A stretch of DNA of 64,000 nt from Candidatus Parcubacteria bacterium (GTDB lineage: Bacteria; Patescibacteriota; Minisyncoccia; Phycocordibacterales; UBA2100): NCBI GenBank assembly GCA_003599295.1, contig QZJK01000011.1, positions 13,372 to 77,371 on the forward strand, written 5' to 3'. Positions 12,788 through 62,246 of the stretch are shown piece by piece. Positions within the stretch are counted from its first letter, which is position 1, and each line of letters starts with the position of its first letter. The position numbers were made by a program, and so were the translations under genes. The notes below the pieces were generated by a model. It did not search any database. It was not told the origin of the DNA and was given only the letters and a program-made list of their open reading frames with translations.

Positions 12788-12815
12788 TAAAAAAACCCCG
12801 CTCGCTCGGGGTTAT
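12788..12815 (-). terminator. Rho-independent terminator for the arsR-family operon. On the minus strand: ccccg-agcgag-cgggg then TTTTTTT.
   Basis: Stem plus a U7 run, read directly. Confidence 0.6.
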
Positions 12816-23901: not shown

Positions 23902-23904
23902 ACA

Positions 23905-25364: not shown

Positions 25365-25382
25365 TAGGAAGGATTATCGCAC

Positions 25383-25407
25383 AAAACCCCGCACGAGGCG
25401 GGGTTTT
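25383..25407 (-). terminator. Rho-independent terminator after pilA: aaaaccccgc-acgag-gcggggtttt. It is bidirectionally symmetric.
   Basis: Stem plus U-run, read directly. Confidence 0.6.
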
Positions 25408-25431
25408 GATGCCGATTGTTTTGCTCTACGA

Positions 25432-25929: not shown

Positions 25930-26060
25930 GAGTCTTATATGCTATTAGTTGATAATTAAGGTGTACCCGTATTGTACCCCCTCTCTTCTTCGAGGGGAGA
26001 CGACCTGTGGATAGTTCATTTTTCTTGAAAAAGCCCCAGATTTCAGGGATTTTTAATCCA

Positions 26061-27272: not shown

Positions 27273-27281
27273 AGCCAGTCC

Positions 27282-28346
27282 CTAGAGAAGCCGCTGAAGC
27301 ACATTTGGATTCAGCGAGTATTGGTACGCGCTCTCGACGGTAATCTCGCCGCGCGCGACCAATTCCGCGAGCGAGCGGTTCATGTCTATCATGCCCTCCC
27401 CGGAACCGGTCTCGATGACCGTGTTTATTTCGTGCGTCCGCTTCTCGCGGATGAGATTCGCGACCGCCTTGTTGTTGACGAGGAGCTCATATGTCGGAAT
27501 GAGGCCGCCGGAGACGCGCGGAATAAGGCGCTGACTGAAGATGCCGGCCATGGAAGCCGCGAGCTGGAGCCGTATCTGGTCCTGCTGCGATGCGGGGAAG
27601 GTGTCGATGATGCGGTCGATGGTCTGTGCGGCATTGTTCGTATGAAGCGTCGAGAAGACGAGGTGTCCGGTCTCCGCAGCTGTGACTGCGGCGGCCATCG
27701 TCTCCGGTCCACGCATCTCGCCAACGAGAATGACGTCTACGTCTTGGCGAAAAGCCGATTGGAGCGCAGTCGCGAAATCTTTCGTGTCAATGCGCACTTC
27801 GCGCTGGTCTATGAGCGACTGCTTCGGCTGATAGACGTATTCCACCGGGTCCTCGATGGTCACGATATGTTCCATTCTCTCGACATTGATGAGTTCTATG
27901 AGGGCGGCGAGGGTCGTGGTCTTTCCTTGCCCCACCGGCCCGACCACCAAGAAGAATCCTTGGGATTTGCGGGCGAAGCTGGTCAGGACGTCCGGCAAAT
28001 TCAATTCCTGTACCGTACGGATGGTTTTTGGTATCAGACGAAGCGCGATACCGACGCTTCCTCTCTGAAAGAACGCATTGCCTCGGAATCGGGCGTTTTC
28101 ATCGCTTTCATAGGCAAAGTCCACTTCCTGCTCGACAAGAAAATGCTCCATTTGCTTATCCGTGAGGAGAGCTTTCAAGAAACCCATCGTGTCATCGGGC
28201 GTCAGAGGCGGCTCCTTCAGCATGGGCGTGAGGGCGCCGGCGACGCGGATGGTCGGATGCGCGTCTGTTGAGAAGTGGAGGTCGCTTCCGCCCTCGTGCT
28301 CAAGGACGTTTATGTATTTTTTGAGCGTTGCCGCGTAGTCTGTCAT
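27282..28346 (-). CDS. pilT: Twitching-motility retraction ATPase.
   Basis: Walker A GPVGQGKTTT, Asp box, Walker B VILVGEMR, His box TLHTN. 354 aa, with no N-terminal extension; this is PilT/PilU-like rather than PilB. Confidence 0.9.
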   Translation of the reverse strand: MTDYAATLKKYINVLEHEGGSDLHFSTDAHPTIRVAGALTPMLKEPPLTPDDTMGFLKALLTDKQMEHFLVEQEVDFAYESDENARFRGNAFFQRGSVGIALRLIPKTIRTVQELNLPDVLTSFARKSQGFFLVVGPVGQGKTTTLAALIELINVERMEHIVTIEDPVEYVYQPKQSLIDQREVRIDTKDFATALQSAFRQDVDVILVGEMRGPETMAAAVTAAETGHLVFSTLHTNNAAQTIDRIIDTFPASQQDQIRLQLAASMAGIFSQRLIPRVSGGLIPTYELLVNNKAVANLIREKRTHEINTVIETGSGEGMIDMNRSLAELVARGEITVESAYQYSLNPNVLQRLL

Positions 28347-28463
28347 GATATGTTCAATGAACGCCCGAGTGAAGCGTACACCTGTGATTTTAACACCTTT
28401 CTTTTCAATGCCGGCTTGAAACTGTGAGTATCCGGCAAGAGTCGGCGGTCGTCCGAAGGCGCG

Positions 28464-28892
28464 TTACTTTTTCTTCCCGTGCTTCTTTACCTCTTCCTTC
28501 ACCGCTTCCACGACCTCCGAAGGTATCATGCTGGCTTTCACCACATAGCGATCGACGCCTAAGCCCTCTGCTTTTGCTTTCTCGGCGTCATTCCCCTGAT
28601 TCGTGAGCGCGATCTTTACCGCGTCTGGAGCGAGGTGTTCCGCGTCAAGCGTCTGGAGGAACGAGAACCCGTCATGCTCCGGCATCACGATGTCGAACAC
28701 GATAGCTTCCGCCGCAAACCCGTCGCGCAAGAATCGAAGGGCGTCCGCTACCGATAGACACGCCTGTACATTGAAGCCTGCGCCGGCGAATTTCATGCTG
28801 TACATATCCACGAGGAATTTGTCGTCGTCGATCAGCAGTATGTTCCCCGACGCTCCTTTGCCTTTCTCGCCTTCCGTTTGGTCATTCATCAT
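28464..28892 (-). CDS. Stand-alone CheY-like response-regulator receiver domain, embedded between pilB and pilT.
   Basis: ILLIDDD..., phospho-acceptor context FDIVMPEHDG, and the conserved T/K positions (KIALTNQG). Confidence 0.8.
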   Translation of the reverse strand: MMNDQTEGEKGKGASGNILLIDDDKFLVDMYSMKFAGAGFNVQACLSVADALRFLRDGFAAEAIVFDIVMPEHDGFSFLQTLDAEHLAPDAVKIALTNQGNDAEKAKAEGLGVDRYVVKASMIPSEVVEAVKEEVKKHGKKK

Positions 28893-28981
28893 AGGTAATC
28901 TGCTTATTGATACAATTATTCTACTCTACTACATATCTGTGCGAGCCCCCGGGGACTGCCAGGGAAGATGTTTATACGTCC

Positions 28982-30736
28982 CTACGAAGCCGGTTTTTCT
29001 TTCTTTTCCGGCGCAGATTCGGCAACTACAGGCATTTCCTCTTCCTGAAACAGGAGTTTCGATGAAAGAGCGTTCAATTCGGAAAAAGGAATGGCTTTTG
29101 AGAACGCTTTCTGCATCGCATCTTCCTGCATCGTAAGCATGCCTTGCCCGCGAGCAGTCTCCCATAGCTTGGATTCAACTGGGTTCTCAAGGATGATGCG
29201 CTCGATCTCCGGAGACATTTCAAGCACTTCGAATACGGCCATGCGGCCGCGAAGCCCTGTGGGCGATGCCGAGGTGCGCATGGGTTCCCACGCACTCTTC
29301 GGTATCTTGAAGCGGTGCTCGGCGGGGAGCGTTGAAAGCTGCTCCTCGATATTCTTTCTATCGCTCGCGGATATCTCTATTTCCTGTGTGCTTCCTTCGA
29401 CAAGCGTGCGCACGAGGCGCTGTGCCATCGAAATGACGAGGACAGGCGGAATGAGATACGGCTCGACGCCCATGTCGATGAGGCGCGGAATGGTACCGAT
29501 TGCGTCGTTCGTGTGGATGGTCGAAAGTACGAGGTGGCCAGTCAGTGCCGCTTGTATCGCGAGCTTTGCGGTTTCGCCGTCACGGATCTCTCCCACCATG
29601 ATGACATCCGGGTCCTGGCGAAGCGTTGTTCGGAGTCCCGTTGCGAACGAGTACCCGATCTCGGGATGCACCTGCGATTGCGTGACGCCTTCGACGAAAT
29701 ACTCGACCGGGTCTTCAAGCGAGAGCACGTTCTTTTTTTCGCGGTCGACTTCCGAAAGCATCGAGTACAAGGTCGTCGATTTTCCCGAACCTGTAGGACC
29801 GGAAATGAGAACCAGCCCGTGCGGACGGTTGATCGCTTTCCGCACCAAATCGAGATTGCGCGGCGTCAACCCGATCTGATCGAGCGGGATGAATCCTTGG
29901 TCACGATCGAGAATACGAATAACGACTTTTTCCCCGTAGTACGAGGGAAAGGTCGAGACACGGAAGTCTATCTGCCGATTTTCGATGGACGCCGAGAAAC
30001 GGCCGTCCTGCGGTTTTCTTTGCTCATCGAGGCGGATGGAGGCGAGCACTTTTATACGCGCGACGAGCGAGCGGTGCGTCGCGAGCGGGAGGATAACACT
30101 CGTGTGAAGGTCGCCGTCCACGCGGTAGCGCACGCGCACTCCTGCGAATTGCGGCTCGATGTGGATGTCGGAAGCTTTTCCATCGATGGCGTACCGAAGT
30201 ATCGTCGACACTATCTTGATGGTCGGTGCATCTTCCTGTACGTTCCTCGTCCGCTGGCCGATCTCCGACGGACGCTCAATGGTTGGGTCATCGAGATCGA
30301 GCGGCGCCATTTCGGATTCGACAGGCCGCTCTTTCTGCTCGGTCGCGAGGTCGACGATGGCGCGGTCCACTTCCCCGCCGAGGCCGCGGTACATTCCGAG
30401 TATTCTTTCAAAATCCTCTTTTGATATTCGAAATACTTTAAACGGCATGCCTGTCGAGCGCGCGATAAAATTCAGCGCGTCGAAGCCCTGTATATCTTCA
30501 GGGTCAACCATGCCGATCTCGAGGACGCCGTCCCCGACCGCGAGCGGTGCGAGCTGATAATGCTTTGCGGATTCCTCGGGAATGTAGCGGAGGACATCGT
30601 ACGGCACCTTGGTTTCCCCTAGCTCTCTCATCGGCACTTCAAGGCCTCCACTCCCCTGGCCCGCTGCCTGCGAACTCGTAGAGAGATTTATTTGAGGACT
30701 TCCTGTTTGATTTGTTTGCGGCATACGAAGTATCAA
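28982..30736 (-). CDS. pilB: Type IV pilus assembly ATPase (GspE family).
   Basis: N1/N2 domains, Walker A GPTGSGKSTT, Asp box and His box TIHTN. The C-terminal tetra-Cys is not obvious. There is an unusual about 40-aa acidic/Lys-rich C-terminal tail. Confidence 0.9.
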   Translation of the reverse strand: MILRMPQTNQTGSPQINLSTSSQAAGQGSGGLEVPMRELGETKVPYDVLRYIPEESAKHYQLAPLAVGDGVLEIGMVDPEDIQGFDALNFIARSTGMPFKVFRISKEDFERILGMYRGLGGEVDRAIVDLATEQKERPVESEMAPLDLDDPTIERPSEIGQRTRNVQEDAPTIKIVSTILRYAIDGKASDIHIEPQFAGVRVRYRVDGDLHTSVILPLATHRSLVARIKVLASIRLDEQRKPQDGRFSASIENRQIDFRVSTFPSYYGEKVVIRILDRDQGFIPLDQIGLTPRNLDLVRKAINRPHGLVLISGPTGSGKSTTLYSMLSEVDREKKNVLSLEDPVEYFVEGVTQSQVHPEIGYSFATGLRTTLRQDPDVIMVGEIRDGETAKLAIQAALTGHLVLSTIHTNDAIGTIPRLIDMGVEPYLIPPVLVISMAQRLVRTLVEGSTQEIEISASDRKNIEEQLSTLPAEHRFKIPKSAWEPMRTSASPTGLRGRMAVFEVLEMSPEIERIILENPVESKLWETARGQGMLTMQEDAMQKAFSKAIPFSELNALSSKLLFQEEEMPVVAESAPEKKEKPAS

Positions 30737-30811
30737 TGGTCTACGCTACGCTCGAAAGGACGAAGGCCATTTTCCACGTCCTCCGAAGCACGGCGTTCTT
30801 CATTCACGGTC

Positions 30812-31141
30812 TCAAATCTCGCCCCCTTCTCCTGCGTCAAAACCCCGAGGGGCGAACGGGTTCCGCCGTCCGACTGGTTCCGGGACTATCTGTGTTCCAA
30901 AATCCCGGAGCGTGCCAAAGGTCGGATCGGAGAATATCGTTCCGGAAAGTGAGACTGCCCGCAGGGTCAAAAGCGTATTGACGATGCCTGCCTCGGCAGT
31001 CCCCACTTCGCCCACTACTTCTGTCGTGAGGAGGGCGTCATCGGGAGTGCTGTCTCCGGAGAACGCATACCACGCACCGCCGAGCGCGACCGCGCCGATG
31101 ATGACGATTGCGAGTGCGTTGCGCGAGAGGAATGACATCAT
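30812..31141 (-). CDS. Small TM-anchored protein at the PilP position in the pilMNO(P) gene order. This is an inference.
   Basis: N-terminal TM (ALAIVIIGAVALGGAWYAF). The start overlaps the pilO stop. Confidence 0.4.
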   Translation of the reverse strand: MMSFLSRNALAIVIIGAVALGGAWYAFSGDSTPDDALLTTEVVGEVGTAEAGIVNTLLTLRAVSLSGTIFSDPTFGTLRDFGTQIVPEPVGRRNPFAPRGFDAGEGGEI

Positions 31142-31143
31142 AC

Positions 31144-31713
31144 TTACTTCAACCAATACGTTCTAATAGTAATGTCGAAACTGTAGAGGGGCTCTCCTGT
31201 GTCGTCCGCATCCTCGGGCTGAAGCGAGAGGGAGACGAGATCGACGATGCGAAGGCTCGATTCGAGATTTTCCAAGAATTGCACGAAGACCGGATAGGTC
31301 GCGACGGTCGAAAACTGGAGCGTCAGTGAATCGAACTTTTGCCGCGCGGCACCGATGGCCCCCACGACGGAATTATCGCCGGTCTCGCTCGCGGGATTCG
31401 AGATGAGCACGTTCTGGAGCGCCATGCCATGAGCCCCGGCAAGATTATCAAGATCAAGAACAAGCCGCACGTTATCCACGTGGTCCGGAAGGAGTTTCTG
31501 GAGGCGCGCGAGGTCGGCCGGATTAAATGCGTTGTAGCGCGACAAAAGCGATTGCTTCAATTGCTGCAGCTCCGCGGCCCTATCGAGAGCCTCGTCGTAT
31601 TGTGCTATCTCCGCCTTTTTCGCTTGCACGGTCTGATACGTGGGCTGCGTGTACATGAAGAAGACCCCGAATGCGACCGCGAGACCAAGTGCCGAAAAAA
31701 TTAGTTTGAACAT
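31144..31713 (-). CDS. pilO: Type IV pilus assembly protein PilO-like.
   Basis: N-terminal TM followed by a coiled-coil (AEIAQYDEALDRAAELQQLKQ), then the core domain. Gene order is pilM-N-O. Confidence 0.7.
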   Translation of the reverse strand: MFKLIFSALGLAVAFGVFFMYTQPTYQTVQAKKAEIAQYDEALDRAAELQQLKQSLLSRYNAFNPADLARLQKLLPDHVDNVRLVLDLDNLAGAHGMALQNVLISNPASETGDNSVVGAIGAARQKFDSLTLQFSTVATYPVFVQFLENLESSLRIVDLVSLSLQPEDADDTGEPLYSFDITIRTYWLK

Positions 31714-31716
31714 AGA

Positions 31717-32427
31717 TTATTCCGTGGGCTGGCTTCCTTCCGAGGCGGTATTCTCCTCAGGGACTCCGTTGAACGGCGAGAGCGAGGATTGCACCTCCGA
31801 GGTCGGATTCGTGAGTTCCTGCGGAAGGCTCTGTGTCGCCCCGCGCACGATGGCGAGGTAATTGATGGCCGAAGGATTCAAAAGCGCCGAAAGGCTGAAG
31901 TGGACGCCGTCCGTTTGGCGATTGATGTTCGAAAAGATGGGACTCGTCACCATGCCGACCTTACTGAAAAGATCCGCCTGGAGCGCTATCGAGTTGACGC
32001 TATCGGCAATGCCGTCCATCTGTATCGTCATGTGCTGCGGATCCGAGCCATCGAAATCCAATGATATGAATGAAATGTTGCTTATCGTTGTCTGCTCAAG
32101 CATGCGGAAAAATGCGGAGGGCGCGATGTGCTTTCCCAAGACCTCGTTCGCGACCAACATGCGGTCATCGAGCCGCGTCAGCTCTTGGATGAGCGCGGGC
32201 TCGAATGCGGCGCTCGCGCGCCCGAGCTGTTCTATTTTCGAAGCAGCGCTTGCATGCAGATACTGATCATAGAGGAGCACTCCGACTCCGAGGACTCCGG
32301 ACACGACGAAAAGAACGACCGAGGCAAGCGCGGCGAGGTCCAAGAGACCGTTCTTCGCCGCTTTGCGGACGGAGCCGGCTTGTACCGTGTCTTTCGGGAT
32401 GAATGAGGGCGGTGTTGTTGTTTCCAT
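31717..32427 (-). CDS. pilN: Type IV pilus assembly protein PilN-like.
   Basis: Single N-terminal TM (LAALASVVLFVVSGVLGVGVLLY) and a periplasmic domain. Position is between pilM and pilO. Confidence 0.65.
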   Translation of the reverse strand: METTTPPSFIPKDTVQAGSVRKAAKNGLLDLAALASVVLFVVSGVLGVGVLLYDQYLHASAASKIEQLGRASAAFEPALIQELTRLDDRMLVANEVLGKHIAPSAFFRMLEQTTISNISFISLDFDGSDPQHMTIQMDGIADSVNSIALQADLFSKVGMVTSPIFSNINRQTDGVHFSLSALLNPSAINYLAIVRGATQSLPQELTNPTSEVQSSLSPFNGVPEENTASEGSQPTE

Positions 32428-32459
32428 AGTTCTTCTTCTGCCGCTCCCCGGTCGCGCGT

Positions 32460-33608
32460 TTACGATTCTTTGAGTTTCCGCAGAACAAGCCCGACCGCTA
32501 CCGCAAATCCTGGGCCTATCTCGCGAAGCACGTCTCCGAGGAACGCAGGCGCTTCCGTTCTTGCGAACGGGTTCGCTATTTCAACGTCCGCCTGCAGGGA
32601 GGTCTTTGCTTCTTCAAAAAGTCCTGGCAAAGACGCACCGCCGCCCGTGAAGACGACGCGCGATACATTCTTATTGTATCGCTGCCCGTAGCTCAATAGT
32701 ACCCGATTCACCTCGCTAAAAATACGCGTGAGTGTTGATAACAGCGCGGTCTTGATGCGTTCGTTCTCATCGGTAGAGTACGCTGTCGTGTCTTTAAGGC
32801 CGCGTTCACGCTTGACGCGCTCCGCCTTGTCGAATTCCCAGTTCAAGGAACGGCCGAGGACCTCCGTCATGTGCTGGCCGCCGACCGTGAGGAGATGTGT
32901 GAGGCGCACGACGCCGCGCTCGACGACATAGAGCTTGGTCGTCGCGGCCCCGAGATCAACCACCAAGACCGGCGCGATGCCGTGTCCGAGCGATGAACGG
33001 ACGACGCTGAATATCTCGATCTCATAGAATTCGACAGTGATACCCGCTTCCGCCGCAAGCGCTTGATAGTTCTCTATCGTAGCGTTATGAATGGCGACAA
33101 GGAGCACTTCTTGCCCGCGCGGTTTGCTTGACTCCTTTTCCATCCTGTCGAACGCGCTTTGCTCCCCCTCCTCCTCTGGTATCAAGAACCAGTCAAGAGC
33201 GACTTCGGTGATTGGCACCGGAATGTATTTCCGAGCCTCGATAGGAACGATGCGCTTTAAAGATTCCTTATCGACTTTCGGCAGCTCAACGACTGAGACT
33301 AAACTCGATGCGAACGGGATGGAAATACCGCCCTTTCGCGCCGTCACGTTCGCTTCTTTCATGAGGTCGGTCAACGCTTCGGCCGTTTTCTCCGACGAAA
33401 GCTTCACGGCTTTTCCGATGGGCTGCCCCCCGTAAGGACCGAGTGCTATTTCGCCATACGTCTCAAGCACCGCTGCGCCGCGCGACGCGCGAAGCTGCAC
33501 GACTTTTATGGAACTTGCGCCGATGTCGACGCCGAGAATGCTTCCCTCGGCGCCTTTGCCGAGAACTCCCGAGAGTGCTTTCCCAATACCCCCAAAAGAA
33601 AAAGCCAT
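32460..33608 (-). CDS. pilM: Type IV pilus assembly protein PilM (actin-like ATPase fold).
   Basis: ILGVDIGASSIKVVQL and VVDLGAATTKL are actin/FtsA-like phosphate motifs. Confidence 0.85.
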   Translation of the reverse strand: MAFSFGGIGKALSGVLGKGAEGSILGVDIGASSIKVVQLRASRGAAVLETYGEIALGPYGGQPIGKAVKLSSEKTAEALTDLMKEANVTARKGGISIPFASSLVSVVELPKVDKESLKRIVPIEARKYIPVPITEVALDWFLIPEEEGEQSAFDRMEKESSKPRGQEVLLVAIHNATIENYQALAAEAGITVEFYEIEIFSVVRSSLGHGIAPVLVVDLGAATTKLYVVERGVVRLTHLLTVGGQHMTEVLGRSLNWEFDKAERVKRERGLKDTTAYSTDENERIKTALLSTLTRIFSEVNRVLLSYGQRYNKNVSRVVFTGGGASLPGLFEEAKTSLQADVEIANPFARTEAPAFLGDVLREIGPGFAVAVGLVLRKLKES

Positions 33609-36673: not shown

Positions 36674-36765
36674 ATCTTTAGAAACGTCGAATTATTGGCT
36701 CGGTTTCCACATTTCGCGCACCGAAACGCGTTGCGTGAGTGCCCTTTGGGGCGCAAAATTGCGCT

Positions 36766-39700
36766 ATGCATGAGCCTTTTATGAAGGCGGGTTCTCGCGG
36801 TTCTTCAATTCTCGGAAGTATTCTCTTGCTCGCGCTCGCAGGAAGTGCGGCTGTGTCGTTTGAACCGTTTTTTTCGACTCCTTCCGACCAAGAACAATTT
36901 GCGGCAAGCAGTCTCGCGCTCGTCGAGGACGCTTCAACCCCAACGCAAACCTCCGCCGGACAAGAAACGGCAACGCAATCAGATTCGCTAGCTCCAGGAA
37001 CCGTCGTAGATTTTAGAGATCAGGTGTATAGCGTGTACTATTCGTGCCGGCAAGAAACGAAAGAAAAAAGCAAGGTGGATGAGCTCACGCAAACCTGCCA
37101 ACCGGGTTTTCTCTACACCATCTATGAAAGCGACGGGGTCATCTCCGTGTCTCCAAGCCCCGGCCCGCAAGGCAATGTCGCCTGTCCCAGTAATACGCCA
37201 ACGCGCGCGGGATCATGCAGCAACCCGGCATCTCCGAATCCGGTCTTAAGTTGCTGGAGCGGACAACCTTCATCCGGCGTCGTCTACTACGCTATCGGAA
37301 ACGAGAAGCCTCAATTCGCCGGAAATTGCGCATCCGGGCAGAAACTCGACGTCGCCGGAAATCGCCTCACCGGACTCAGTAAAACGCTCGATGCGGCAGA
37401 CCCGGAAAAACAGTCCGCCATCATGGCAACGGCGGACATATCTCCCACGCAACAAGCCACGCTGATGAATGCGTTTAACAACATACAATCCGGAGAACAA
37501 AAAGTGGAGGAGATAAGTGCCGAGCGGAACGATATCGAACAGCAGATAACAGCGTATGCGAACTGTACGAATCCCGCGAATCCGTGCACAACGGAACTGC
37601 AAGCGCTCCAAACACGCAGAGACGAAATACTGCGGGAACAGCGGATAGCTGAGAGCGAGCTTGACTCGCTTCAAAATAATGCCCAACGTCTGTTGGCCGG
37701 CGAACCGCCGGTGAGCACGTCCGGTACAACGAATTTTCCCGGCTATGATCTCCCTTCTCGCCTTGATTTTGCCCGAAATACAACGGGCTTCAACGGTAGC
37801 GGTTTTATTGGGAGCCCGGAGGCGCAACCATCTTCCCGTCCTATCGTAGCCTCGCCGCCGCAAACGCCGAATCCGACGGGGGAAATTGATTGGGGGAAAT
37901 TCTATAACCAAGGGTCGAGTTACCGACCGACACCCCAGCCGACCGGATCCGAAAGTACGGCAGGAACGGGGGCTCAGCCTTTTCAAGGTCCTCAATTCAC
38001 ACCGAGCTCCTATACGCCGCCCGGCATATCCGGTCCGAACAGGTTGACCGATGAAGAGCTCGCACAATTCCCTCCCGAGATCCAGCAGGCGGCTCAAAAA
38101 CAATGCGAGCTGGGGCGCTGTGCTCTCATGCATCGAATAGCTGGAAGTGATGCAACTTCCGCACAAGAAAAAGCGGGGCAAGTGACGCAGGTCGCGCTCA
38201 TAGGTTCGCCCAGTTGCTCACAAGTATCGATATCCGACTGTTTCAAGGCGGCCGATCTTCCTTACACGCTCGAGGGCCGCAAGCAAGTATGCGGAGCGCT
38301 GGGACTCGACTACTGCGACAGCGTGGGGAGCGCAAAAACGAACGTGCGAATGGCGGAGGACGTGAAAAGATTCTCCCAAACGGGTACGGTCACTGAAGTT
38401 ACGCAAACACGGACTGTTACCATTGACTCGCGCGGCTCCATTCTCGGAGAAGAAATTACGGAGAAAAGTACGGAATCACAAGTTATCGCTCCATCATACC
38501 AAGAGGGCGCGACGTTGCGTGATCTCGAAGCTTTCTACGATAGGGCTCAAGAAACCCAGAACGGGGTGGAGACCGTATATAAAGTGACGGGAGACGTGTG
38601 CGGGGTCGTCGGCACGAGCAGTAGCGACCAAACCTGCAGCTACTATCGGCGATTGGCTGACGCGCAAGGCGGCGTGTTGTCGAAAGACCAGTTGCCTTCT
38701 TATACCCGACAACAGCTCACCGCGGTCGAGACGGCCGGAAAAGCTATCCAAACACCGTTCCCGACCGCAGGAACTGTTTCCGATGTTGCGCCGAGAACGG
38801 CGGGCGGAACACTCGAAGCAGAGAATCTCGCGCCGCTTTTTGACGCAGAGAGGGTGCGGAACGCGGAAACAGCGCGCCTGGAAGGACTGGCTACGTATTA
38901 CAAAGAACAACAGCAAGAGCGAATCATCGAGACCACGTCAAGTCGCCTTCAGGGCCTTGCTGATTTTACGGAAGCGCAACAAGTGGCTCGGGCAAATGAG
39001 GCTTCGATACAACGCTGGGAAGGCATGGCTGCTTATGCAGAAGCGCAACGGGAAGCCCGCGCTCGTTCGAATGATGCTGCTTCCGCGCGGCTTCAAGGCC
39101 AAGCAGATTTCATAGCGCGTACCAATTATTTGGAGAACCATCCGACAACGCAAAATATGTATGACGCGTTGATAGCGGCGGGCCAAACGCCCGCAGAGAC
39201 CCAGCAGTATATAGACAAAGTGGTTTCAACCGGTGCTTGGAATACCGGGACGGAGGCGCAAGTGGATTCATACCTCGCGCACAACTACGACCGCATCGTC
39301 GAGTACGGTAAAGAGCGTACGGCGCTCGGAGAAGCTCTTCTCGGGAAAATAGTAGCGTCAGGGCCGCCACCGCCCGTAAGTGATATCCAAGTCACTTCCG
39401 CACCGCTTGTCCCGATACCGGGCTCCACAGAAAGCCTATCTACGAGAGATCTCATCAATCAAATCGTGACAGGAGGTTCACAGGCCCCTTCCGCGGCAAA
39501 CGAACTTTGGGATAGAGCGACCACGCGCCCTGCATGGCTTGACCCCGCGATAAAGCCTGCCGCGGATCTCGTCTCAGATCTGACCGGAAAAGATCAGGTA
39601 CTTTTCGGTGTGCAAGGACAACAATCGCAGGCTACGGATGAAGGAGTCCTTACGATAGATACGGGCATCAGGAGAGACTTTTCAATCGCCGATCCTGATC

Positions 39701-40455
39701 TTACGACAAGCGAACTCTCGCGAATTCTCCAAGAACGCGAGTTTGTCCAAACAGTGCCTTCCGGCTCGTCGATTTTCCAAACGTCGCTTCCGGTGACCCC
39801 CTCGGCCGCAAAACTCATTCCTTCGACATTGCCGAGCCCGACACTAACGGACATCGATTATGACGCGACCTTCTCGCGTGCAGTGCAAACGTACGGCGCA
39901 GACAGTATAGAAGTTCTCGGCGTTCAAAGCCTACTTTCGAATCCGGATCTCCGCGATGTGAATGAACTTGAGGCGCGTCTCCAGGTGTATGACTTGGCAC
40001 CCGTCCCTTCGCAAGAATTTCTCGGGACTGATCGGAGCATTCCCATCCCCTCTTCAGGTTACGTGCCTGTCGAAAGTAGTATCGGCTGTTGGTCCCCGAA
40101 CGTTGATTGCGGACTCATGAACAGAATGCCGGCGGAAGGGCAAACGGTCGTATTCACTCCGTCAGATGGGGGAGGGACCGAATATTCCTACTACACGCCA
40201 CCTACAGGTGTTATGTCGGCTCTGAACCCGTCCTCTTGGTTTACCCAGACCGGAACGGTTTCTCAAACTCTTCTTCCTGCAGGCGCTTCAACCGTTACCG
40301 TTACGAACGACGGCGGCGTCTTGTCTGTAAGAGTCGGCGGTTCGTCGAGCGTACGTGGTGTATACTCTTCTCAATCCGCCACATCGGCTACGTACGGACA
40401 GATACTCTCGGGACTTTCCGGACAACCCTTAAGAATTACAGCACCCGGTCAATAA
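36766..40455 (+). CDS. Very large secreted/surface protein, about 1230 aa, low complexity (Ser/Thr/Gln/Ala/Pro-rich).
   Basis: Signal peptide MKAGSRGSSILGSILLLALAGSAAVS. A long uninterrupted ORF with coiled-coil-like stretches and no catalytic motif. Confidence 0.65.
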   Translation: MHEPFMKAGSRGSSILGSILLLALAGSAAVSFEPFFSTPSDQEQFAASSLALVEDASTPTQTSAGQETATQSDSLAPGTVVDFRDQVYSVYYSCRQETKEKSKVDELTQTCQPGFLYTIYESDGVISVSPSPGPQGNVACPSNTPTRAGSCSNPASPNPVLSCWSGQPSSGVVYYAIGNEKPQFAGNCASGQKLDVAGNRLTGLSKTLDAADPEKQSAIMATADISPTQQATLMNAFNNIQSGEQKVEEISAERNDIEQQITAYANCTNPANPCTTELQALQTRRDEILREQRIAESELDSLQNNAQRLLAGEPPVSTSGTTNFPGYDLPSRLDFARNTTGFNGSGFIGSPEAQPSSRPIVASPPQTPNPTGEIDWGKFYNQGSSYRPTPQPTGSESTAGTGAQPFQGPQFTPSSYTPPGISGPNRLTDEELAQFPPEIQQAAQKQCELGRCALMHRIAGSDATSAQEKAGQVTQVALIGSPSCSQVSISDCFKAADLPYTLEGRKQVCGALGLDYCDSVGSAKTNVRMAEDVKRFSQTGTVTEVTQTRTVTIDSRGSILGEEITEKSTESQVIAPSYQEGATLRDLEAFYDRAQETQNGVETVYKVTGDVCGVVGTSSSDQTCSYYRRLADAQGGVLSKDQLPSYTRQQLTAVETAGKAIQTPFPTAGTVSDVAPRTAGGTLEAENLAPLFDAERVRNAETARLEGLATYYKEQQQERIIETTSSRLQGLADFTEAQQVARANEASIQRWEGMAAYAEAQREARARSNDAASARLQGQADFIARTNYLENHPTTQNMYDALIAAGQTPAETQQYIDKVVSTGAWNTGTEAQVDSYLAHNYDRIVEYGKERTALGEALLGKIVASGPPPPVSDIQVTSAPLVPIPGSTESLSTRDLINQIVTGGSQAPSAANELWDRATTRPAWLDPAIKPAADLVSDLTGKDQVLFGVQGQQSQATDEGVLTIDTGIRRDFSIADPDLTTSELSRILQEREFVQTVPSGSSIFQTSLPVTPSAAKLIPSTLPSPTLTDIDYDATFSRAVQTYGADSIEVLGVQSLLSNPDLRDVNELEARLQVYDLAPVPSQEFLGTDRSIPIPSSGYVPVESSIGCWSPNVDCGLMNRMPAEGQTVVFTPSDGGGTEYSYYTPPTGVMSALNPSSWFTQTGTVSQTLLPAGASTVTVTNDGGVLSVRVGGSSSVRGVYSSQSATSATYGQILSGLSGQPLRITAPGQ

Positions 40456-45051: not shown

Positions 45052-45120
45052 GCCCGTATTCTCGCACGCCCCCGGAAGTGCACAATCACCGGAATCCACA
45101 CGTGCTTCATGTACCTTCAG

Positions 45121-45193
45121 TCCGCCTGCCTGGACTCGAACCAGGAACCCCAGAGGTATAAGCTCTGTGCTCTAACCATTGAGCTACAGGCGG
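45121..45193 (-). tRNA. tRNA-Ile, anticodon TAT, which reads AUA.
   Basis: CCGCCTGTAGCTCAATGGTTAGAGCACAGAGCTTATACCTCTGGGGTTCCTGGTTCGAGTCCAGGCAGGCGGA. Anticodon stem cagag/ctctg with loop ctTATac. Confidence 0.7.
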
Positions 45194-57470: not shown

Positions 57471-58079
57471 TTACTCCAGGATGCCATCAAGGTTCACGTC
57501 GTAGAGTATCTCTTCGTGGATGATGCGATAGTCGGTGAGCTCTTCCTGCTTGAACCAGTGCGGTATCTCGGCTTCCGCCTCGGGAACAGAACCTGATGCG
57601 TGAACGAGGTTCCGGACCGCCCGGGTGTCGGTGTCAGCCATCGTGTACGAATCGAGAACGAAATCGCCGCGAATTGTTCCAACGTCGGAACTTAAGGGTT
57701 CCGTGCCGCCGGTGATCTTTCGAACGATGCCGACCGCATGCGCACCTTCCCATACCATCGCAACCACGGGGCCAGAGGAAAGATATTTCTTGAGGTTGGC
57801 GAGAATCTTCGCGGTTATTTCGAGCGGGTCTTCCGACGGCGGGGTCATGCCTTTCTCTCGATAGCTTTTTATCGTTTTCTCGCCGGTCACTCGCCGCCAG
57901 TTCGGGTCAAGCGTGTAATGCGCCTCCACATGGCGCTCGCTCGGCACGAGCATTTTCATGCCGACAAGCTTTAACCCGACATTCTCATAGCGCCTGATTA
58001 TCTCCCCCATGAGCCCGCGCTGGACCCCGTCGGGTTTTATAACGACAAGCGTTCGTTCGTCTTTCGGGTGTTGCTTCAT
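57471..58079 (-). CDS. ndk: Nucleoside diphosphate kinase, with internal insertions.
   Basis: VVIKPDGVQRGL...active-site His context NLVHASGS. Confidence 0.8.
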   Translation of the reverse strand: MKQHPKDERTLVVIKPDGVQRGLMGEIIRRYENVGLKLVGMKMLVPSERHVEAHYTLDPNWRRVTGEKTIKSYREKGMTPPSEDPLEITAKILANLKKYLSSGPVVAMVWEGAHAVGIVRKITGGTEPLSSDVGTIRGDFVLDSYTMADTDTRAVRNLVHASGSVPEAEAEIPHWFKQEELTDYRIIHEEILYDVNLDGILE

Positions 58080-58115: not shown

Positions 58116-60956
58116 CTACTGGTAGAGAGATGCGGGATCGGGTAATCCGGCCGCGGAAAATGCGGAAGGTTCCGGAATCGCTTTCCCATAGCTCGCATCG
58201 AATTTCCTCCGAATCTCCGCCTCGACTTCCTCTCTGTCTTTGCCATACGTGCGATACGACAATTCTTTCAGCGCTCCGACCCCGCTGTAATCCATGTGCG
58301 GAAGGTCTGCGGTCTGTATAGAGAAGGGACGCGCTGGCACACCGTTGACGAGAAGCGAGAGCACGGCGTGTCGGTTCGGCAGGTTTTCCAAATCAGGCGC
58401 CGTGAAAACAGGTTCGAACTGCTTCGCAAGGAATTCCGCGTCCGTTGTTCCCACGCGGAACGCCGCTTTCGTGCCGACGTTCCCCACAACCGCATCGCGT
58501 ATTTTTTCATCAAGCTGCGCGATGAATTGGTGCGCGATGGTGAGCGCTAGCTTATATTTGCGAGCTTCCGAAAGGATGGTGCCGATAGAAGGCGTCGCGA
58601 AGTTCTGGAATTCATCGATATAGAGGTAAAACGTGGGAAGATCGCCGCGCGTATCCACGCGCGAGAACGCGGCCTGCAAGAATTTTGAGACAAGAATAAG
58701 CCCAAGAAGCGACGTGTTTCTGTCGCCGAGGCGCCCTTTTGAGAGGTTCGCAATAAATATCTTCTTATCGTCCATTATCTTGCGGAAATCAAAGGATGAC
58801 TGCTCCTGCGACACGATGGGGCGCATGATGTCATTCGTCAGAAAGACGTCGAATTTCGACGTGATGTAGGGTGCCACGTTCTCGAGAGACGGATCTCCCT
58901 GCGCCTGTTCCGCGATCTTCTTCCAGAACTGCACGATGATGGGATTCTTGCAGTGAGAAAGCTTGAGGTTCCTGAATACCGGGTCGGCGAAGACGCGCGG
59001 TATCTCGACGAACGTGCTGCCGGTATCCGGATCTTCTACAACAAGTTGCACCGCGTTCCTGTAGTACTGCTCGAACATCGGGCCGAACGCTTCCGGGACA
59101 TCAGCGTAGAGTTTTCGGAAGATGCCGTACACTTCATCAACGACGAACGTCTTCATTTCGGGACGCGCCCTGTCATATTCGAGCATGTTGAGTCCCATCG
59201 GCCGCGCAGTATACGCAGGGTCGAAATAGACGACATCGCCCGCGCGTTCAGGTGGAATAGAGGCTAATATATCTTCGATATCGTTCCCGTGCGGGTCAAT
59301 GAACGCGACTCCTTCGCCGTTCTTAATGTCCTGAATTATCATATTCTTGATGAGGCCGGTTTTACCTGTGCCGGTCTGTCCGATGACGTAGCAGTGCCGC
59401 AAGCGATCGCTCGCGCCAAAGTGCACCGTGCGCTCTTCCGCGCCGTAGCGATTGATGCCGACGGTAATGCCCTCTTTCGGCATTTCGACGGGCGCAGGAG
59501 TTTGTTTCGCGAACGAGCGTTTGAGTTCGCGGGAGGTCGTTACGCGCTCCGCCGTGAAGTGGAATATCGAGGTTATCTCGGCAAGCGAGATGGGAATGGC
59601 ATATGCATGGTCGAAAATGCGGAAACTGTAATCGCGGAGGAACGCGGGAATATTCCACTTTGATACTCTCTTGAATACGAGGCTGTTCCCTTTCGGATCA
59701 TCGTACTGGCTAAAAGGGGCGATGAGGTTGTCGAGAAGATCGTCTGCGCGTTTCTTGTCCGGCGCGGACGCGACGAGGCGAATTAAGACCGGTACGACGC
59801 GGCTTTTTACTTTGCGGCCTATCTCTTCGGTCGCGACCTGATCGGGCTGCCGCCTGAACGTACGGTCTTTCTCATCCTGCTTTTGCTTCTCCGACCTGAA
59901 CATCGAATCTGCCATGTCGTAGAACATCTCGCCTATCGCACTTTCCGGGACGTTCAGGGATTTGTGCAGTATCTTTCCCTTCTCAAGACGCCGCAGCATT
60001 TTCTTGTAGTGCTGGTTATATCGCTCCCCTTCGCTCGAGACTGTTAGCTGGAGCGCCGCTCCCTCGCCGTGCTTCGCGATCTTCGCGAACGCCGCGAGAA
60101 GCACGTTCATCGGGTCGTGCTCGAACATTTCAGGCGTCTTCAACGGATAGGCCGGGTGTTCCGAAAGTGTTGCGTACGCAGCCGCATGTTCTCCCTCGGC
60201 GTTAAAGATATTGTAGTCGCCGCGCTCTTCGGATATGCGCGCGTTCGGGAAGACCGACGAGATGAGGCGCTCTGCGAGGTCTTTCTTTTTTCGCGGGACA
60301 GCGAGGTACAAAATCGCCGATTCCGTGCCTTCGGGAACAGCTATTTCAAGAGAGAACCCCTCGTGTGCAGTGATGAGTGATGTGAGCCCCGCATAGAGCT
60401 GTTCGGAAGAAGAGAGGATCTCCTGCAGTTTCATCTGACGCGACTCTTCCTTGCCTCGCTCGCCGTGCGCCTGCGGGTCGATGGTGAAAAGCGTCAGATC
60501 AAGCGCAAGGCGCATCTTCTCCGAGGGCGGGGTGCCGCCTTGCGGGAGGCCTTCCGCGATGTAGCGGACTAAGCAGCGATGAAGGTCGTCCTCTAAATGA
60601 GGATTTTTCATCCGCGCGACCACCGAGAGCGCATTTCGGATACCCTGATTCGCAACGATCTTCAGGAGTTCGTCCATCTGCACGTCGTGAATTTCGGGCT
60701 CGAGCTTCAACACGTTCCGGAGAACGTCGTGTTCCGGCATGACAACGGCCTCATGAAGCACAATCGTGGGATGCGTTTCGGCATAAGCCGCGACTTCCCG
60801 CTTCGCGATGCGGTCCCGCTCGAGCTGGTTCGGCGCTATTTCGAGTTCCTGCTCTTTTTCACGCACGCGCTCGCGCAAGTATGCAAGTTCCTCTTCAGGG
60901 CTCCTGAATTTTTCTTGGGTCGCGGCCTTCGGCCGCTCCATCGCCGATGGAGGCAT
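58116..60956 (-). CDS. Orphan VirD4/TraD/TraG-like type IV coupling-protein-family ATPase with an about 470-aa N-terminal domain of unknown function and no TM helices.
   Basis: Walker A HCYVIGQTGTGKTG, Walker B YLYIDEFQNF, and EARKYKLALTIAHQFIAQL (the Q-S/H-Q-L motif of TrwB/VirD4). Confidence 0.5.
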   Translation of the reverse strand: MPPSAMERPKAATQEKFRSPEEELAYLRERVREKEQELEIAPNQLERDRIAKREVAAYAETHPTIVLHEAVVMPEHDVLRNVLKLEPEIHDVQMDELLKIVANQGIRNALSVVARMKNPHLEDDLHRCLVRYIAEGLPQGGTPPSEKMRLALDLTLFTIDPQAHGERGKEESRQMKLQEILSSSEQLYAGLTSLITAHEGFSLEIAVPEGTESAILYLAVPRKKKDLAERLISSVFPNARISEERGDYNIFNAEGEHAAAYATLSEHPAYPLKTPEMFEHDPMNVLLAAFAKIAKHGEGAALQLTVSSEGERYNQHYKKMLRRLEKGKILHKSLNVPESAIGEMFYDMADSMFRSEKQKQDEKDRTFRRQPDQVATEEIGRKVKSRVVPVLIRLVASAPDKKRADDLLDNLIAPFSQYDDPKGNSLVFKRVSKWNIPAFLRDYSFRIFDHAYAIPISLAEITSIFHFTAERVTTSRELKRSFAKQTPAPVEMPKEGITVGINRYGAEERTVHFGASDRLRHCYVIGQTGTGKTGLIKNMIIQDIKNGEGVAFIDPHGNDIEDILASIPPERAGDVVYFDPAYTARPMGLNMLEYDRARPEMKTFVVDEVYGIFRKLYADVPEAFGPMFEQYYRNAVQLVVEDPDTGSTFVEIPRVFADPVFRNLKLSHCKNPIIVQFWKKIAEQAQGDPSLENVAPYITSKFDVFLTNDIMRPIVSQEQSSFDFRKIMDDKKIFIANLSKGRLGDRNTSLLGLILVSKFLQAAFSRVDTRGDLPTFYLYIDEFQNFATPSIGTILSEARKYKLALTIAHQFIAQLDEKIRDAVVGNVGTKAAFRVGTTDAEFLAKQFEPVFTAPDLENLPNRHAVLSLLVNGVPARPFSIQTADLPHMDYSGVGALKELSYRTYGKDREEVEAEIRRKFDASYGKAIPEPSAFSAAGLPDPASLYQ

Positions 60957-60968
60957 GGGAAAAGTATA

Positions 60969-62246
60969 TCACTTGCCGGAAAGTGCTTTCGCGCCGATGT
61001 CGCGGCGATAGTACATATTCTCGAAATGGATTTTGCCAACCGCCTCGTATGCTCGCTCAATTGCCTCTTTCAGCGTCGAGCCAGTTGCGGAAACGCTCAA
61101 GACGCGGCCACCGTCGGTCACAAGCTGGCCGTTTACAAGCTTCGTGCCCGCGTGGAACACGATGACATTAGGCACTTTTTCCGCCTCTTCAATGCCCGTA
61201 ATCGGAAGTCCCTTCTTGTATCCATCCGGGTAGCCACCCGATGCGATGATAATGGTCGCCGCAAACTCCTGATCCCACTCCAGATCGAAATCAGCGAGTG
61301 TGCCGTCAATACATGCATTGAAAAGTCCGAACACATCCGATTTCATGAGACGCATGTAAACTTCCGCCTCGGGACATCCGAACCGAGCGTTGAACTCAAG
61401 GACTCTCGGACCTTTCGGCGTCATCATAAGACCTGGATACAGCATACCGACAAGCGGGCTCCCTTTGTCGGCAAGAGTGCGGAGCGCGGGCCGCACCACG
61501 CGCGCTTCAATATCCGCAAGCTGATTCTTAGAGACCCACGAGATGGGGGCGGCAACGCCCATGCCGCCCGTCATTTTTCCGGTGTCGTTCTCGCCTATCG
61601 TTTTATGGTCTTGGGCCGTCGGAAATACGATCGACGTCTTTCCATCCGAAATCGCGTGGATGGAAATTTCTTGCCCGTCCAGAAATTCTTCGATGACTAC
61701 CTTGCTCGCCGTGTTGAGGACATTATCAAGCATGGTCTCCTTGAGAGCTGTTTCCGCTTCCTCCATTGTCATGCATACGTATGCACCTTTGCCGAACACC
61801 ATCCCATCAACCTTAATGACGATTGGCGCGCCTTTTTCGCGAACATAGGCGAGTGCTTCTGCGTGCTCGGTGAATATCTTGAATTCGGCGGTCGGGATGC
61901 CCGCGTCTGCCATCAGTTGTTTTGAGAATGCTTTGGAACTTTCAATTTGCGCTGCGGCTTTCGTCGGACCCCAAATGCGAAGCCCTCTGGCCTGAAAAAC
62001 ATCCACGATGCCTTCACCGAGCGGATTCTCCGGACCCACCACCGTGAGGGATATTTTTTTTTCGATAGCAAACTCGGCAAGTTTCTCGAATTCCATCACG
62101 CCGATGGGGACGTTCTCGGCGACATTCCCGGTGCCGCCGTTCCCCGGCGCAATGTAGACTTTCCCGACGCGCGGTGATTGTTTCAACTTCCATGCTATCG
62201 CATGCTCTCGAGGATAGGTGCCAATTACTAAAACATCCTCCGCCAT
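60969..62246 (-). CDS. purD: Phosphoribosylamine--glycine ligase.
   Basis: ATP-grasp. VLVIG.GPREHA-like start, 425 aa. Confidence 0.9.
   Translation of the reverse strand: MAEDVLVIGTYPREHAIAWKLKQSPRVGKVYIAPGNGGTGNVAENVPIGVMEFEKLAEFAIEKKISLTVVGPENPLGEGIVDVFQARGLRIWGPTKAAAQIESSKAFSKQLMADAGIPTAEFKIFTEHAEALAYVREKGAPIVIKVDGMVFGKGAYVCMTMEEAETALKETMLDNVLNTASKVVIEEFLDGQEISIHAISDGKTSIVFPTAQDHKTIGENDTGKMTGGMGVAAPISWVSKNQLADIEARVVRPALRTLADKGSPLVGMLYPGLMMTPKGPRVLEFNARFGCPEAEVYMRLMKSDVFGLFNACIDGTLADFDLEWDQEFAATIIIASGGYPDGYKKGLPITGIEEAEKVPNVIVFHAGTKLVNGQLVTDGGRVLSVSATGSTLKEAIERAYEAVGKIHFENMYYRRDIGAKALSGK

Follow-up and report, generated by a model that had tools for sequence, protein, structure and literature searches.

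The 64,000-nucleotide stretch of DNA analysed here (the window) carries a complete open reading frame of 946 residues, hereafter X, and a translation check confirmed the three sequence motifs given by a first-pass annotation of the same DNA (Table 1). X is a real gene, with more than 120 full-length homologues of 74-94% identity in Kaiserbacteria/Parcubacteria and matches in 171 GTDB species. Beyond purD lie map and adk, on the same strand as X, and the GC content of X is that of its surroundings. The first-pass annotation had named ndk and purD as neighbours and seen no T4SS genes nearby, and both observations hold. In a Pfam scan of 30 ORFs, comprising all window ORFs of at least 550 aa and the neighbours of X, neither a VirB4 nor a relaxase nor any further T4SS protein was identified. 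In the window, secretion-type genes are confined to a cluster for type IV pili (about 26-34 kb), and the sole recombinase is about 50 kb away from X. T4SS genes just outside the window, which the annotation had considered, are also absent in syntenic genomes, where gmk, secY and ribosomal-protein genes lie past the right edge. No NurA-like, nuclease or helicase partner gene adjoins X.

Table 1. Features of X and its two flanking genes, in positions of the window.
Feature	Positions	Strand	Remarks
ORF X, complete	58116..60956	-	ATG start, 946 aa; DUF8128 (VirB4 N-terminal-domain-like) domain and T4CP-type ATPase
N-terminal extension, aa 1-140	60537..60956	-	Charged, helical, clade-specific
DUF8128 domain, aa 140-495	59472..60539	-	VirB4 N-terminal-domain fold
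P-loop ATPase domain, aa 496-900	58257..59471	-	FtsK/HerA superfamily, T4CP (VirD4/TraD) lineage; Pfam, NCBIfam, Foldseek
Walker A GQTGTGKT, aa 526-533	59358..59381	-	Translation check
Walker B region YLYIDEFQNF, aa 777-786	58599..58628	-	D781, E782; translation check
Third motif ARKYKLALTIAHQFIAQL / ARKYKLALTIAHQ, aa 798-815	58512..58565	-	Post-Walker B strand and sensor-like Q; translation check
C-terminal tail, aa 901-946 and stop	58116..58256	-	Variable, low confidence
ndk	57471-58079	-	Neighbour of X
purD	60969-62246	-	Neighbour immediately upstream of X

The C-terminal half of X had been described as being of the TrwB/VirD4 type, and profile searches bear this out. Among the Pfam models that had been proposed as a check, TraG-D_C is matched above its cutoff (26.8 bits vs 22), and TrwB_AAD_bind (20.0 vs 20.5) and DUF87 (22.1 vs 23.2) stay just under theirs, as does T4SS-DNA_transf (18.1 vs 20.1). 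In P0013, a protein 82% identical to X, TrwB_AAD_bind passes its cutoff with 26.7 bits. The best NCBIfam matches are TraD/VirD4 models, led by SXT_TraD (E 1.3e-15), at scores that do not reach the curated T4CP cutoffs (56.9 bits vs 366 for SXT_TraD, the rest far below). Using phmmer, X matched the proteins that occupy the T4CP position in plasmid and phage T4SS clusters with E-values of 1e-55 (Embleya), 1e-33 and 3e-24, and did not match the VirB4-like ATPases of those clusters (Embleya, phage G). The CagE_TrbE_VirB, AAA_10 and P-loop_TraG models gave no Pfam match on X, nor did FtsK_SpoIIIE match, and the VirB4 model TIGR00929 reached 22.1 bits for a cutoff of 643. PDB sequence searches with the single sequence and with a 92-sequence profile returned TrwB and DotL alone, with weak similarity at Walker A; these matches were too weak to classify X and were dropped for that purpose. 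A reassignment to AAA_10 or KAP, the other P-loop families named by the first-pass annotation, was looked for and not found, and the original placement therefore stands. Altogether, the sequence matches place the ATPase half of X in the VirD4/TraD lineage, and not with VirB4, HerA, FtsK, KAP or AAA_10.

The Walker A and B motifs of X are intact. In a diverse alignment of the family (A3), the G, G, G and K residues of Walker A, the D-E-F-Q-N of Walker B, which aligns to the Walker B stretch of TrwB, and the E-A-R-K-Y and Q of the third motif are almost invariant. X shares with the VirD4/TrwB/TraD coupling proteins both the lineage of its motor and matching Walker motifs; helices predicted between these motifs at aa 606-729, at a pLDDT of just 40-68, may correspond to the all-alpha insertion of coupling proteins. 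Among close homologues, mean identity amounts to 89% in the ATPase domain and falls to 65% in the C-terminal tail, where pLDDT is below 50 for aa 919-946.

The first ~470 residues of X had been reported as a large novel domain with no recognisable motif. Pfam, NCBIfam and PDB sequence searches did not detect any motif there either, but the region is already catalogued on homologues: PF26449 (DUF8128) is precomputed on nearly all of those with 74-88% identity and also on distant ones, so that X is, by homology, a probable PF26449 member. Moreover, the domain is not novel in its fold. All of the top 14 Foldseek matches of the N-terminal domain are to TrwK, the VirB4 of R388 (PDB 7o42, 8rtd), and the full-length model is collinear with full-length TrwK (E 7.5e-12), ahead of HerA (4d2i, E 5e-8) and TrwB; defence HerA complexes are matched as well. 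The first full-length AF2 model, built on a shallow alignment (74-94% identity), had a pLDDT of 64.5 and a poor ATPase domain, and was taken as a lead only. We conclude that DUF8128, at the N-terminus of X, adopts a VirB4 N-terminal-domain fold and stands in place of the usual transmembrane anchor. As the first-pass annotation had stated, no such anchor is present: no transmembrane helix was detected in X, the top 19-residue Kyte-Doolittle hydropathy being 1.39 with its peak within the ATPase domain. We hold this two-domain architecture and the family placement of X with high confidence.

X therefore differs from known coupling proteins in carrying, where these have an N-terminal transmembrane anchor, a ~350-aa VirB4-like domain preceded by an extension of ~140 aa. 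In R388, the VirB4 N-terminal domain links protomers to one another and, at the membrane, touches VirB3 and VirB8. Of the named systems, pIP501 TraJ is comparable in that a distinct small membrane protein, TraI, is proposed to tether this T4CP to the cytoplasmic membrane (review PMC12857230); unlike X, TraJ is plasmid-borne and encoded inside its T4SS operon. X falls in one family with other DUF8128 proteins and matches phrog_5156, a PHROG that includes Bacillus phage G gp156 and SPO1 gp27.4, at E 9e-67 over aa 190-918. A literature search for "DUF8128" found no papers. The N-terminal extension sets X apart from these proteins. In alignments of representative clusters, only the closest (41-49% identity) align from aa ~13-21, and the family mostly begins at aa ~150-200 of X. 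The extension has low pLDDT in the full-length model and 67-68% mean identity among close homologues. Other CPR DUF8128 proteins bear C-terminal extensions, for totals of 1,800-2,000 aa. Small ORFs found upstream in other lineages were considered as the source of the extension and as a VirB3-like partner; they were rejected on both counts, having no similarity to aa 1-200 of X and being soluble, partly low-complexity and devoid of a transmembrane helix.

X is single-copy and syntenic, in the order adk-map-purD-X-ndk, in all 80 of the 80 Kaiserbacteria-clade species sampled, and the order adk-map-(purD)-X-ndk persists at 47% identity. The gene is positioned after the ribosomal-protein/secY operon. 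Among close homologues, its mean identity (74%) equals that of ribosomal protein L20 (74%) and compares with 72% for Map, 62% for Ndk, 60% for PurD and 51% for Adk. The family as a whole comprises 5,070 clusters at 50% identity (E <= 1e-30). X is thus a vertically inherited core gene of the chromosome of Candidatus Kaiserbacteria (Paceibacteria, CPR/Patescibacteria), strongly constrained and widespread across CPR.

In Saccharibacteria, a family member is found directly upstream of gyrB-gyrA or within ~3 kb. In S. epibionticum, the genes flanking SEML1_0142 are ordered as in two of the DUF8128 loci (L092 and L093), and SEML1_0142 and the orthologues of X are both annotated as "TraM recognition domain-containing protein". 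On the basis of synteny, length and annotation, we regard SEML1_0142 as the positional orthologue of X. It was called essential (ES/ES/ES), core and Patescibacteria-enriched by Tn-seq (PMC10633639 Table S1), the only available dataset of its kind. A second paralogue, SEML1_0293, is dispensable. The T4SS of S. epibionticum is also essential, its cluster contains no recognisable coupling protein, and the genome encodes a separate VirB4, SEML1_0008 (PMC10633639 Table S1). X is thus a motor ATPase of the ultra-small Patescibacteria that is strongly conserved and probably essential.

Outside CPR, all relatives of X with a readable gene context are in T4SS clusters. In Embleya, the cluster is composed of PrgI, a VirB4-like protein, the X relative, a replication-relaxation gene and NlpC/P60; in Streptomyces, the X relative is followed by a replication-relaxation gene. 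In phage G, gp155 (VirB4-like, P-loop_TraG/AAA_10) precedes gp156, the X relative, and in pCLK a VirB2-like gene precedes it. Within these monoderm T4SS clusters, the plasmid and phage G relatives of X stand where a coupling protein is expected, beside a true VirB4, and those on mobile elements hold this position next to relaxase-like genes as T4CP genes do. X itself, unlike a T4CP gene, is unlinked to relaxase or T4SS genes and is not cargo of a mobile element. In none of the CPR loci inspected was virB4 near the X-family gene. The term orphan used in the first-pass annotation is consequently apt for gene linkage only: VirB4 is listed as present in 10 of the 12 draft assemblies with X and as absent from two, where assembly incompleteness may be the reason, and T4CP homologues lacking such linkage have been reported throughout the phylum Patescibacteria (PMC12102498). 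In that study, whose set does not necessarily include the orthologues of X, 148 of 5,713 T4CP homologues were near virB4, T4CP-like genes occurred in 96% of assemblies versus ~80% for VirB4, and relaxases were nearly absent (109 in 3,026 assemblies).

A coupling-protein-type engine joined to a VirB4-like N-terminal domain, conserved and probably essential, identifies X as a domesticated secretion-system ATPase, and neither as a stray conjugation gene nor as a defence gene. As to its task, the reading that we tentatively favour, at slightly less than even confidence, is that X serves the chromosomal T4SS of Patescibacteria as a second motor, encoded away from it and docked via its VirB4-like domain. 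X would assemble as a ring, or as a VirB4-like oligomer, on the cytoplasmic face of the membrane, where the VirB4-like domain could dock on small T4SS membrane subunits (VirB3/VirB8-like) or on VirB4 itself. ATP hydrolysis would then feed or pull a substrate, protein or nucleic acid, through the T4SS, and X would be the "missing" second motor of this essential system, encoded at a distance from its other genes. Given the near absence of relaxases in CPR, a conjugative relaxase-DNA complex is an unlikely substrate. What counts against this T4SS-coupled reading is that virB4 lies away from the X-family gene in all CPR loci inspected and from most Patescibacteria T4CP homologues, that T4CP-like genes occur in more assemblies than VirB4 does, that two assemblies with X are listed as VirB4-negative, and that the family adjoins gyrBA in Saccharibacteria. 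The synteny-based orthology to SEML1_0142, the low confidence of the ATPase part of the full-length model and the sub-cutoff scores of X for TrwB_AAD_bind and T4SS-DNA_transf also weaken it.

The distance from virB4, the wider spread of T4CP-like genes, the adjacency to gyrBA and the two VirB4-negative assemblies speak for a less likely but still live rival, namely that X is a cytoplasmic nucleic-acid translocase or helicase working independently of any T4SS in housekeeping DNA metabolism (repair, resolution, topology). This would be a ring ATPase exapted from a T4CP/VirB4 ancestor to act on the cell's own DNA, close to the soluble DNA translocase suggested by the first-pass annotation; exaptation was also raised by the authors of PMC12102498. 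HerA translocases are among the structural relatives of X, with which they share an ATPase superfamily and a similar motor fold, and the proximity of gyrBA may hint at a function in DNA metabolism. However, where genomes are as compact as in CPR, gene order says little about function, and X possesses neither the HAS barrel nor the NurA partner of HerA, with DUF87 remaining under cutoff. It is also devoid of the 4TM, alpha and gamma domains of FtsK. Since S. epibionticum, the one CPR genome checked in this respect, has a separate, canonical and essential FtsK, X is not an FtsK replacement, and we ruled out this role. The absence of nuclease or helicase partners beside X, the T4SS context of every readable non-CPR relative, and an N-terminal domain of the type that docks VirB4 to the membrane complex, rather than one that binds DNA or forms a HAS barrel, likewise weigh against a translocase acting on its own.

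It is improbable that X is a divergent VirB4, i.e. a second paralogue serving as an assembly or energising ATPase and forming VirB4-style dimers via its N-terminal domain. X does show the full two-domain layout of VirB4, has TrwK/VirB4 as its best full-length structural matches, and lacks a transmembrane segment, as is typical of VirB4. However, its ATPase sequence is of another lineage: VirB4 sequence models go unmatched, and phmmer strongly retrieves the T4CP-position partners and not the VirB4-like ATPases. Besides, no virB3 is adjacent, X coexists with a true VirB4, as in S. epibionticum, and family members on mobile elements are always accompanied by a separate one.

The remaining two explanations are largely refuted and, in our view, very improbable. 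An anti-phage ATPase, either HerA-like or resembling mad8 of the MADS system, would account for the PADLOC mad8 match (E 7.7e-15), the weak HerA matches and the fold likeness to defence HerA complexes, and the first-pass annotation had indeed proposed a defence-type ATPase. The mad8 match is nevertheless limited to the shared P-loop core in the ATPase domain, the nature of mad8 not being stated in the MADS preprint, and the neighbours of X are housekeeping genes and not a mad1-mad8 operon: mad1-7 and nuclease, methylase or Sir2/DUF4297 partners are absent nearby. Defence genes tend to be variable and dispensable, with a patchy distribution; X has a fixed syntenic position, is conserved at the level of L20 and has an essential positional orthologue. 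A coupling protein left by an integrated or decaying mobile element would fit the T4CP-type motifs and the relatives on conjugative plasmids, but is contradicted by the absence of relaxase, integrase and T4SS genes nearby, the distant recombinase, the matching GC content, the rarity of relaxases in the phylum, and strict synteny, with strong purifying selection on the gene, in at least 80 species.

A large part of bacterial diversity falls within the Patescibacteria, which rely on a T4SS that is essential but functionally unexplained and whose cluster has no recognisable coupling protein. Thousands of unlinked T4CP-like genes have been described in the literature with no resolved role, and the paralogue cited there is a dispensable one. 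X, which represents one of the two paralogue types, provides a concrete candidate for the missing motor, being headed by a VirB4-like domain, driven by a T4CP-type engine, as conserved as L20 and represented by an essential positional orthologue; this combination yields a structural hypothesis for how such a motor could dock with no membrane anchor of its own. The hybrid architecture of X also bears on the divergence of the VirB4 and VirD4 ATPases. More speculatively, DUF8128 ATPases might represent an unrecognised third class of motor in T4SSs, coupling proteins with a VirB4-type head, domesticated as the essential, unlinked engine of the host-contact T4SS of Patescibacteria, and possibly recording a passage from VirB4 to coupling protein through loss of the N-terminal domain.

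The C-terminal half of ORF X, a 946-aa protein, contains the motifs GQTGTGKT (aa 526-533), YLYIDEFQNF (aa 777-786) and ARKYKLALTIAHQFIAQL (aa 798-815), which the first-pass annotation had read as those of a VirD4/TraD-type motor. Our searches support this assignment. Indeed, the ATPase domain matches TraG-D_C above the Pfam cutoff, with TrwB_AAD_bind, T4SS-DNA_transf and DUF87 slightly under theirs, and Pfam gave no match in X to AAA_10, KAP, P-loop_TraG or CagE_TrbE_VirB, contrary to the reassignment to AAA_10 or KAP that had been envisaged. The top NCBIfam matches are TraD/VirD4-type models, all far under curated cutoffs; PADLOC matched mad8 and HerA over the P-loop core only, and PDB sequence searches yielded no more than weak similarity to TrwB and DotL at Walker A. 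The PHROG family phrog_5156 matches aa 190-918 (E 9e-67). With phmmer, the ATPase domain matched proteins in the type IV coupling protein (T4CP) position of mobile-element clusters (E 1e-55, 1e-33 and 3e-24) and gave no match to the VirB4-like ATPases of those same clusters. From its sequence, the motor of X is assigned to the T4CP lineage.

The N-terminal domain, initially described as novel, is annotated as DUF8128 (Pfam PF26449) in precomputed annotations of X homologues; a literature search gave no publication mentioning this domain. The full-length AlphaFold model of X is mediocre (pLDDT 64.5), with aa 180-465 confidently folded. Its first Foldseek match was full-length TrwK, the VirB4 of R388 (E 7.5e-12, alignments of ~900 columns), ahead of HerA and TrwB, which both matched the motor half only. 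We also modelled aa 140-495 separately, from a diverse alignment of 81 sequences reaching down to ~20% identity (pLDDT 91.4, pTM 0.89). The top 14 Foldseek matches were all TrwK chains (E 8e-8 to 1e-5), including a 457-residue partial chain, and the first unrelated fold followed at E 6e-3. Since no P-loop ATPase was found among these matches, the resemblance is to the N-terminal domain (NTD) of VirB4 and not to its motor. The N-domain thus has a VirB4-NTD-like fold, which aa 140-495 have in common with R388 TrwK. In R388, VirB4 protomers are joined by this domain, which is embedded at the membrane and touches VirB3 and VirB8 (review PMC12857230). The proposed absence of a membrane anchor is borne out: X has no transmembrane helix, as its most hydrophobic 19-residue window, inside the ATPase domain, reaches only 1.39.

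X lies in a same-strand run of adk, map, purD, X, ndk, a gene for a small membrane protein and a LOG/SLOG-family gene, with purD and ndk flanking it as first noted and rplT-rpmI-infC opposite the run. The window also holds the housekeeping genes ligA, recG, ftsH, pyrG, gatA-like and thrC and ten tRNA/tmRNA genes, and GC content at the X locus is that of its surroundings. VirB4, relaxases and other T4SS proteins were found in 0/30 window ORFs scanned against Pfam (all those of at least 550 aa and the neighbours of X). The initial observation of a motor gene with no T4SS genes nearby is confirmed, and the concern that such genes lie just outside the window is countered by syntenic genomes, which show gmk, secY and ribosomal-protein genes past adk.

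X has over 120 full-length homologues (74-94% identity) in MAGs of Candidatus Kaiserbacteria and Parcubacteria. When each GTDB species was represented by a single genome, relatives were detected in 171 species. The best 80 of these all belong to the Kaiserbacteria/Parcubacteria clade; 80/80 loci keep the order adk-map-(purD)-X-ndk, with the ribosomal-protein/secY cluster upstream of X and infC-rpmI-rplT a few genes away. Across the same genomes, mean identity is 74% for X and L20, 72% for Map, 62% for Ndk, 60% for PurD and 51% for Adk. As X equals L20 and its ATPase domain alone reaches 89%, its sequence conservation is that of a strongly constrained core gene and not of mobile or defence cargo.

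Searched exhaustively, 1.84 billion cluster representatives gave 20,676 matches with E <= 1e-3, of which 5,070 had E <= 1e-30. The conserved unit is aa ~150/190-920 of X, the first ~140 residues being a clade-specific extension, and some lineages of Patescibacteria (CPR) have 1,800-2,000-aa versions with C-terminal extensions. Other lineages have a paralogue that begins with the ATPase itself. The one at L095, the locus of representative homologue P0133, is 42% identical to X aa 511-926, with its Walker A already at residue 40, a ~520-aa C-terminal extension and no DUF8128 domain; CPR genomes thus reuse the X-type motor with different accessory domains. Housekeeping genes also surround distant CPR members: the order secY-adk-map-X-ndk is kept in one at 47% identity, another at 42% adjoins ftsH, and in Saccharibacteria-type loci the DUF8128 gene lies just upstream of gyrB-gyrA, near infC-rpmI-rplT. 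The family is core, syntenic, highly constrained and phylum-wide. The small ORF preceding the gene in Saccharibacteria-type loci (140-210 aa; disordered N-terminus, conserved helical C-terminal ~60 aa) may encode a partner protein; its S. epibionticum equivalent, SEML1_0141, has the Tn-seq calls GD/ES/ES. A VirB3-like identity was ruled out, as it has no transmembrane helix.

Features of the window and of distant CPR loci (L numbers)
Feature	Coordinates	Strand	Remarks
ORF X, 946 aa	58116..60956	-	ORF list
1,842-2,006-aa DUF8128 ATPases	L090:8001-14021, L094:9001-14529		C-terminal extensions of at least 1,000 aa; between pheST/YkuD and gyrBA
ATPase-first paralogue, 958 aa	L095:1505-4381		P0133 locus; 4.6 kb from X homologue
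Small soluble ORF	L092:9529-10008, L093:9364-9996, L094:8542-8976, L090:7473-7919		directly upstream of DUF8128 gene; Saccharibacteria-type loci
Type IV pilus cluster	20745-33608	-/+	Pfam scan; pil genes ~26-34 kb
pilM	32460-33608		in pilus cluster
pilB	28982-30736		in pilus cluster
pilT	27282-28346		in pilus cluster
pilC	26061-27272		in pilus cluster
Large serine recombinase	5583-7295	+	Resolvase + Recombinase + zinc ribbon
LOOT RNA	3785-3909	+	Rfam RF03000, 70.9 bits
FMN riboswitch	12841-12959	-	106.5 bits
tRNA-Ile	45120-45193	-	anticodon TAT (UAU)
1,238-aa ORF	36739-40455	+	upstream of recG; 0 Pfam matches

Elsewhere in the window, three large ORFs without Pfam matches (20745-22175, 22172-23338 and 24508-25917) flank the pilus cluster and may be pilins or adhesins. 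The serine recombinase abuts tRNA-Glu (7255-7329) and tRNA-Ser (7411-7498), beside a GC dip at 4001-6000 (0.46 vs ~0.54), a site that may mark the boundary of an integrated element. The LOOT RNA is directly upstream of a 306-aa ORF without Pfam match (3887-4807), overlapping its start, and the FMN riboswitch overlaps the predicted start of a 339-aa ORF (11868-12887). tRNA-Ile(UAU) is uncommon in bacteria, where AUA is usually decoded by a lysidine-modified CAU tRNA.

Beyond CPR, tblastn detected remote relatives (20-30% identity, usually over aa ~190-918) in Bacillus phages (G gp156, SPO1 gp27.4), on Clostridium botulinum, Streptomyces and Embleya plasmids and on Sulfolobus pNOB8; most have no convincing transmembrane helices. 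In Embleya, a PrgI-family gene and a 643-aa VirB4-like ATPase precede the relative, followed by a replication-relaxation protein and NlpC/P60; in Streptomyces the replication-relaxation gene also follows. In phage G, gp156 comes after the VirB4-like gp155 (P-loop_TraG/AAA_10), and in pCLK the relative comes after a VirB2-like gene. From these contexts, with which the phmmer comparison agrees, the family on mobile elements provides monoderm-type T4SS clusters with their second ATPase and occupies the T4CP slot.

In Patescibacteria, 5,713 VirD4-type T4CP homologues were reported in 2,918 of 3,026 assemblies, only 148 of them near virB4, with VirB4 in ~2,400 assemblies and relaxases numbering just 109 across the dataset; the authors kept exaptation possible, pointing to a t4cp that is non-essential in S. 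epibionticum (Quinonero-Coronel et al. 2025, PMC12102498). Ten of the 12 X-carrying Kaiserbacteria/Parcubacteria assemblies findable in their Table S1 are listed as VirB4-positive. In S. epibionticum, the T4SS cluster is essential and without recognisable coupling and relaxase proteins, and Tables S1 and S2 of the same study contain two T4CP-like genes (Wang et al. 2023, PMC10633639). One of them, SEML1_0293, clearly matches TrwB/TraG Pfam models and is called NE/NE/NE. SEML1_0142, a 1,019-aa "TraM recognition domain-containing protein" then without Pfam match (P-loop domain aa 381-800), is flagged core and Patescibacteria-enriched and is ES/ES/ES, with insertions going from 114 in input DNA to 11, 11 and 9. 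It lies in the order L28, M50 protease, L20, L35, IF3, YifB, small ORFs, 0142, gyrB, gyrA, PAP2. Since the Saccharibacteria DUF8128 loci L092 and L093 have the same gene order, we infer that the X family has SEML1_0142 as its positional orthologue and is essential in S. epibionticum. That genome separately encodes a canonical FtsK (SEML1_0096), also essential, and a VirB4 of its own (SEML1_0008).

Altogether, X combines a T4CP-lineage motor with a VirB4-NTD-fold head and no membrane anchor. We tentatively favour a role in which X would use its VirB4-like domain to dock on membrane subunits of the chromosomal T4SS of Patescibacteria, serving as the unlinked second motor of that system. A conjugative relaxase-DNA complex is an unlikely substrate, as relaxases are nearly absent from CPR. 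In the main, less likely alternative, X would be a T4SS-independent nucleic-acid translocase, in line with its lack of linkage to T4SS genes, its position near gyrBA in Saccharibacteria and the wider spread of T4CP-like genes than of VirB4. That X is a divergent VirB4 would fit the fold but is improbable, given the contrary sequence evidence and the coexistence of the family with true VirB4 genes. Synteny, conservation and essentiality all speak against the defence role suggested at first and against a mobile-element role, each of which we consider highly improbable.

Databases already contain the X family (DUF8128, PGAP names), and unlinked Patescibacteria T4CP homologues are published, so X does not represent a new kind of system. 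What appears unreported in the literature consulted is the VirB4-NTD fold of the DUF8128 N-domain, a region to which the structure-based annotation of SEML1_0142 assigned nothing (Wang et al., PMC10633639), as well as the two paralogue types in CPR genomes and the identification, by synteny, of the DUF8128 type with the essential and not the dispensable gene. The function of the X family now has a clear experimental path.
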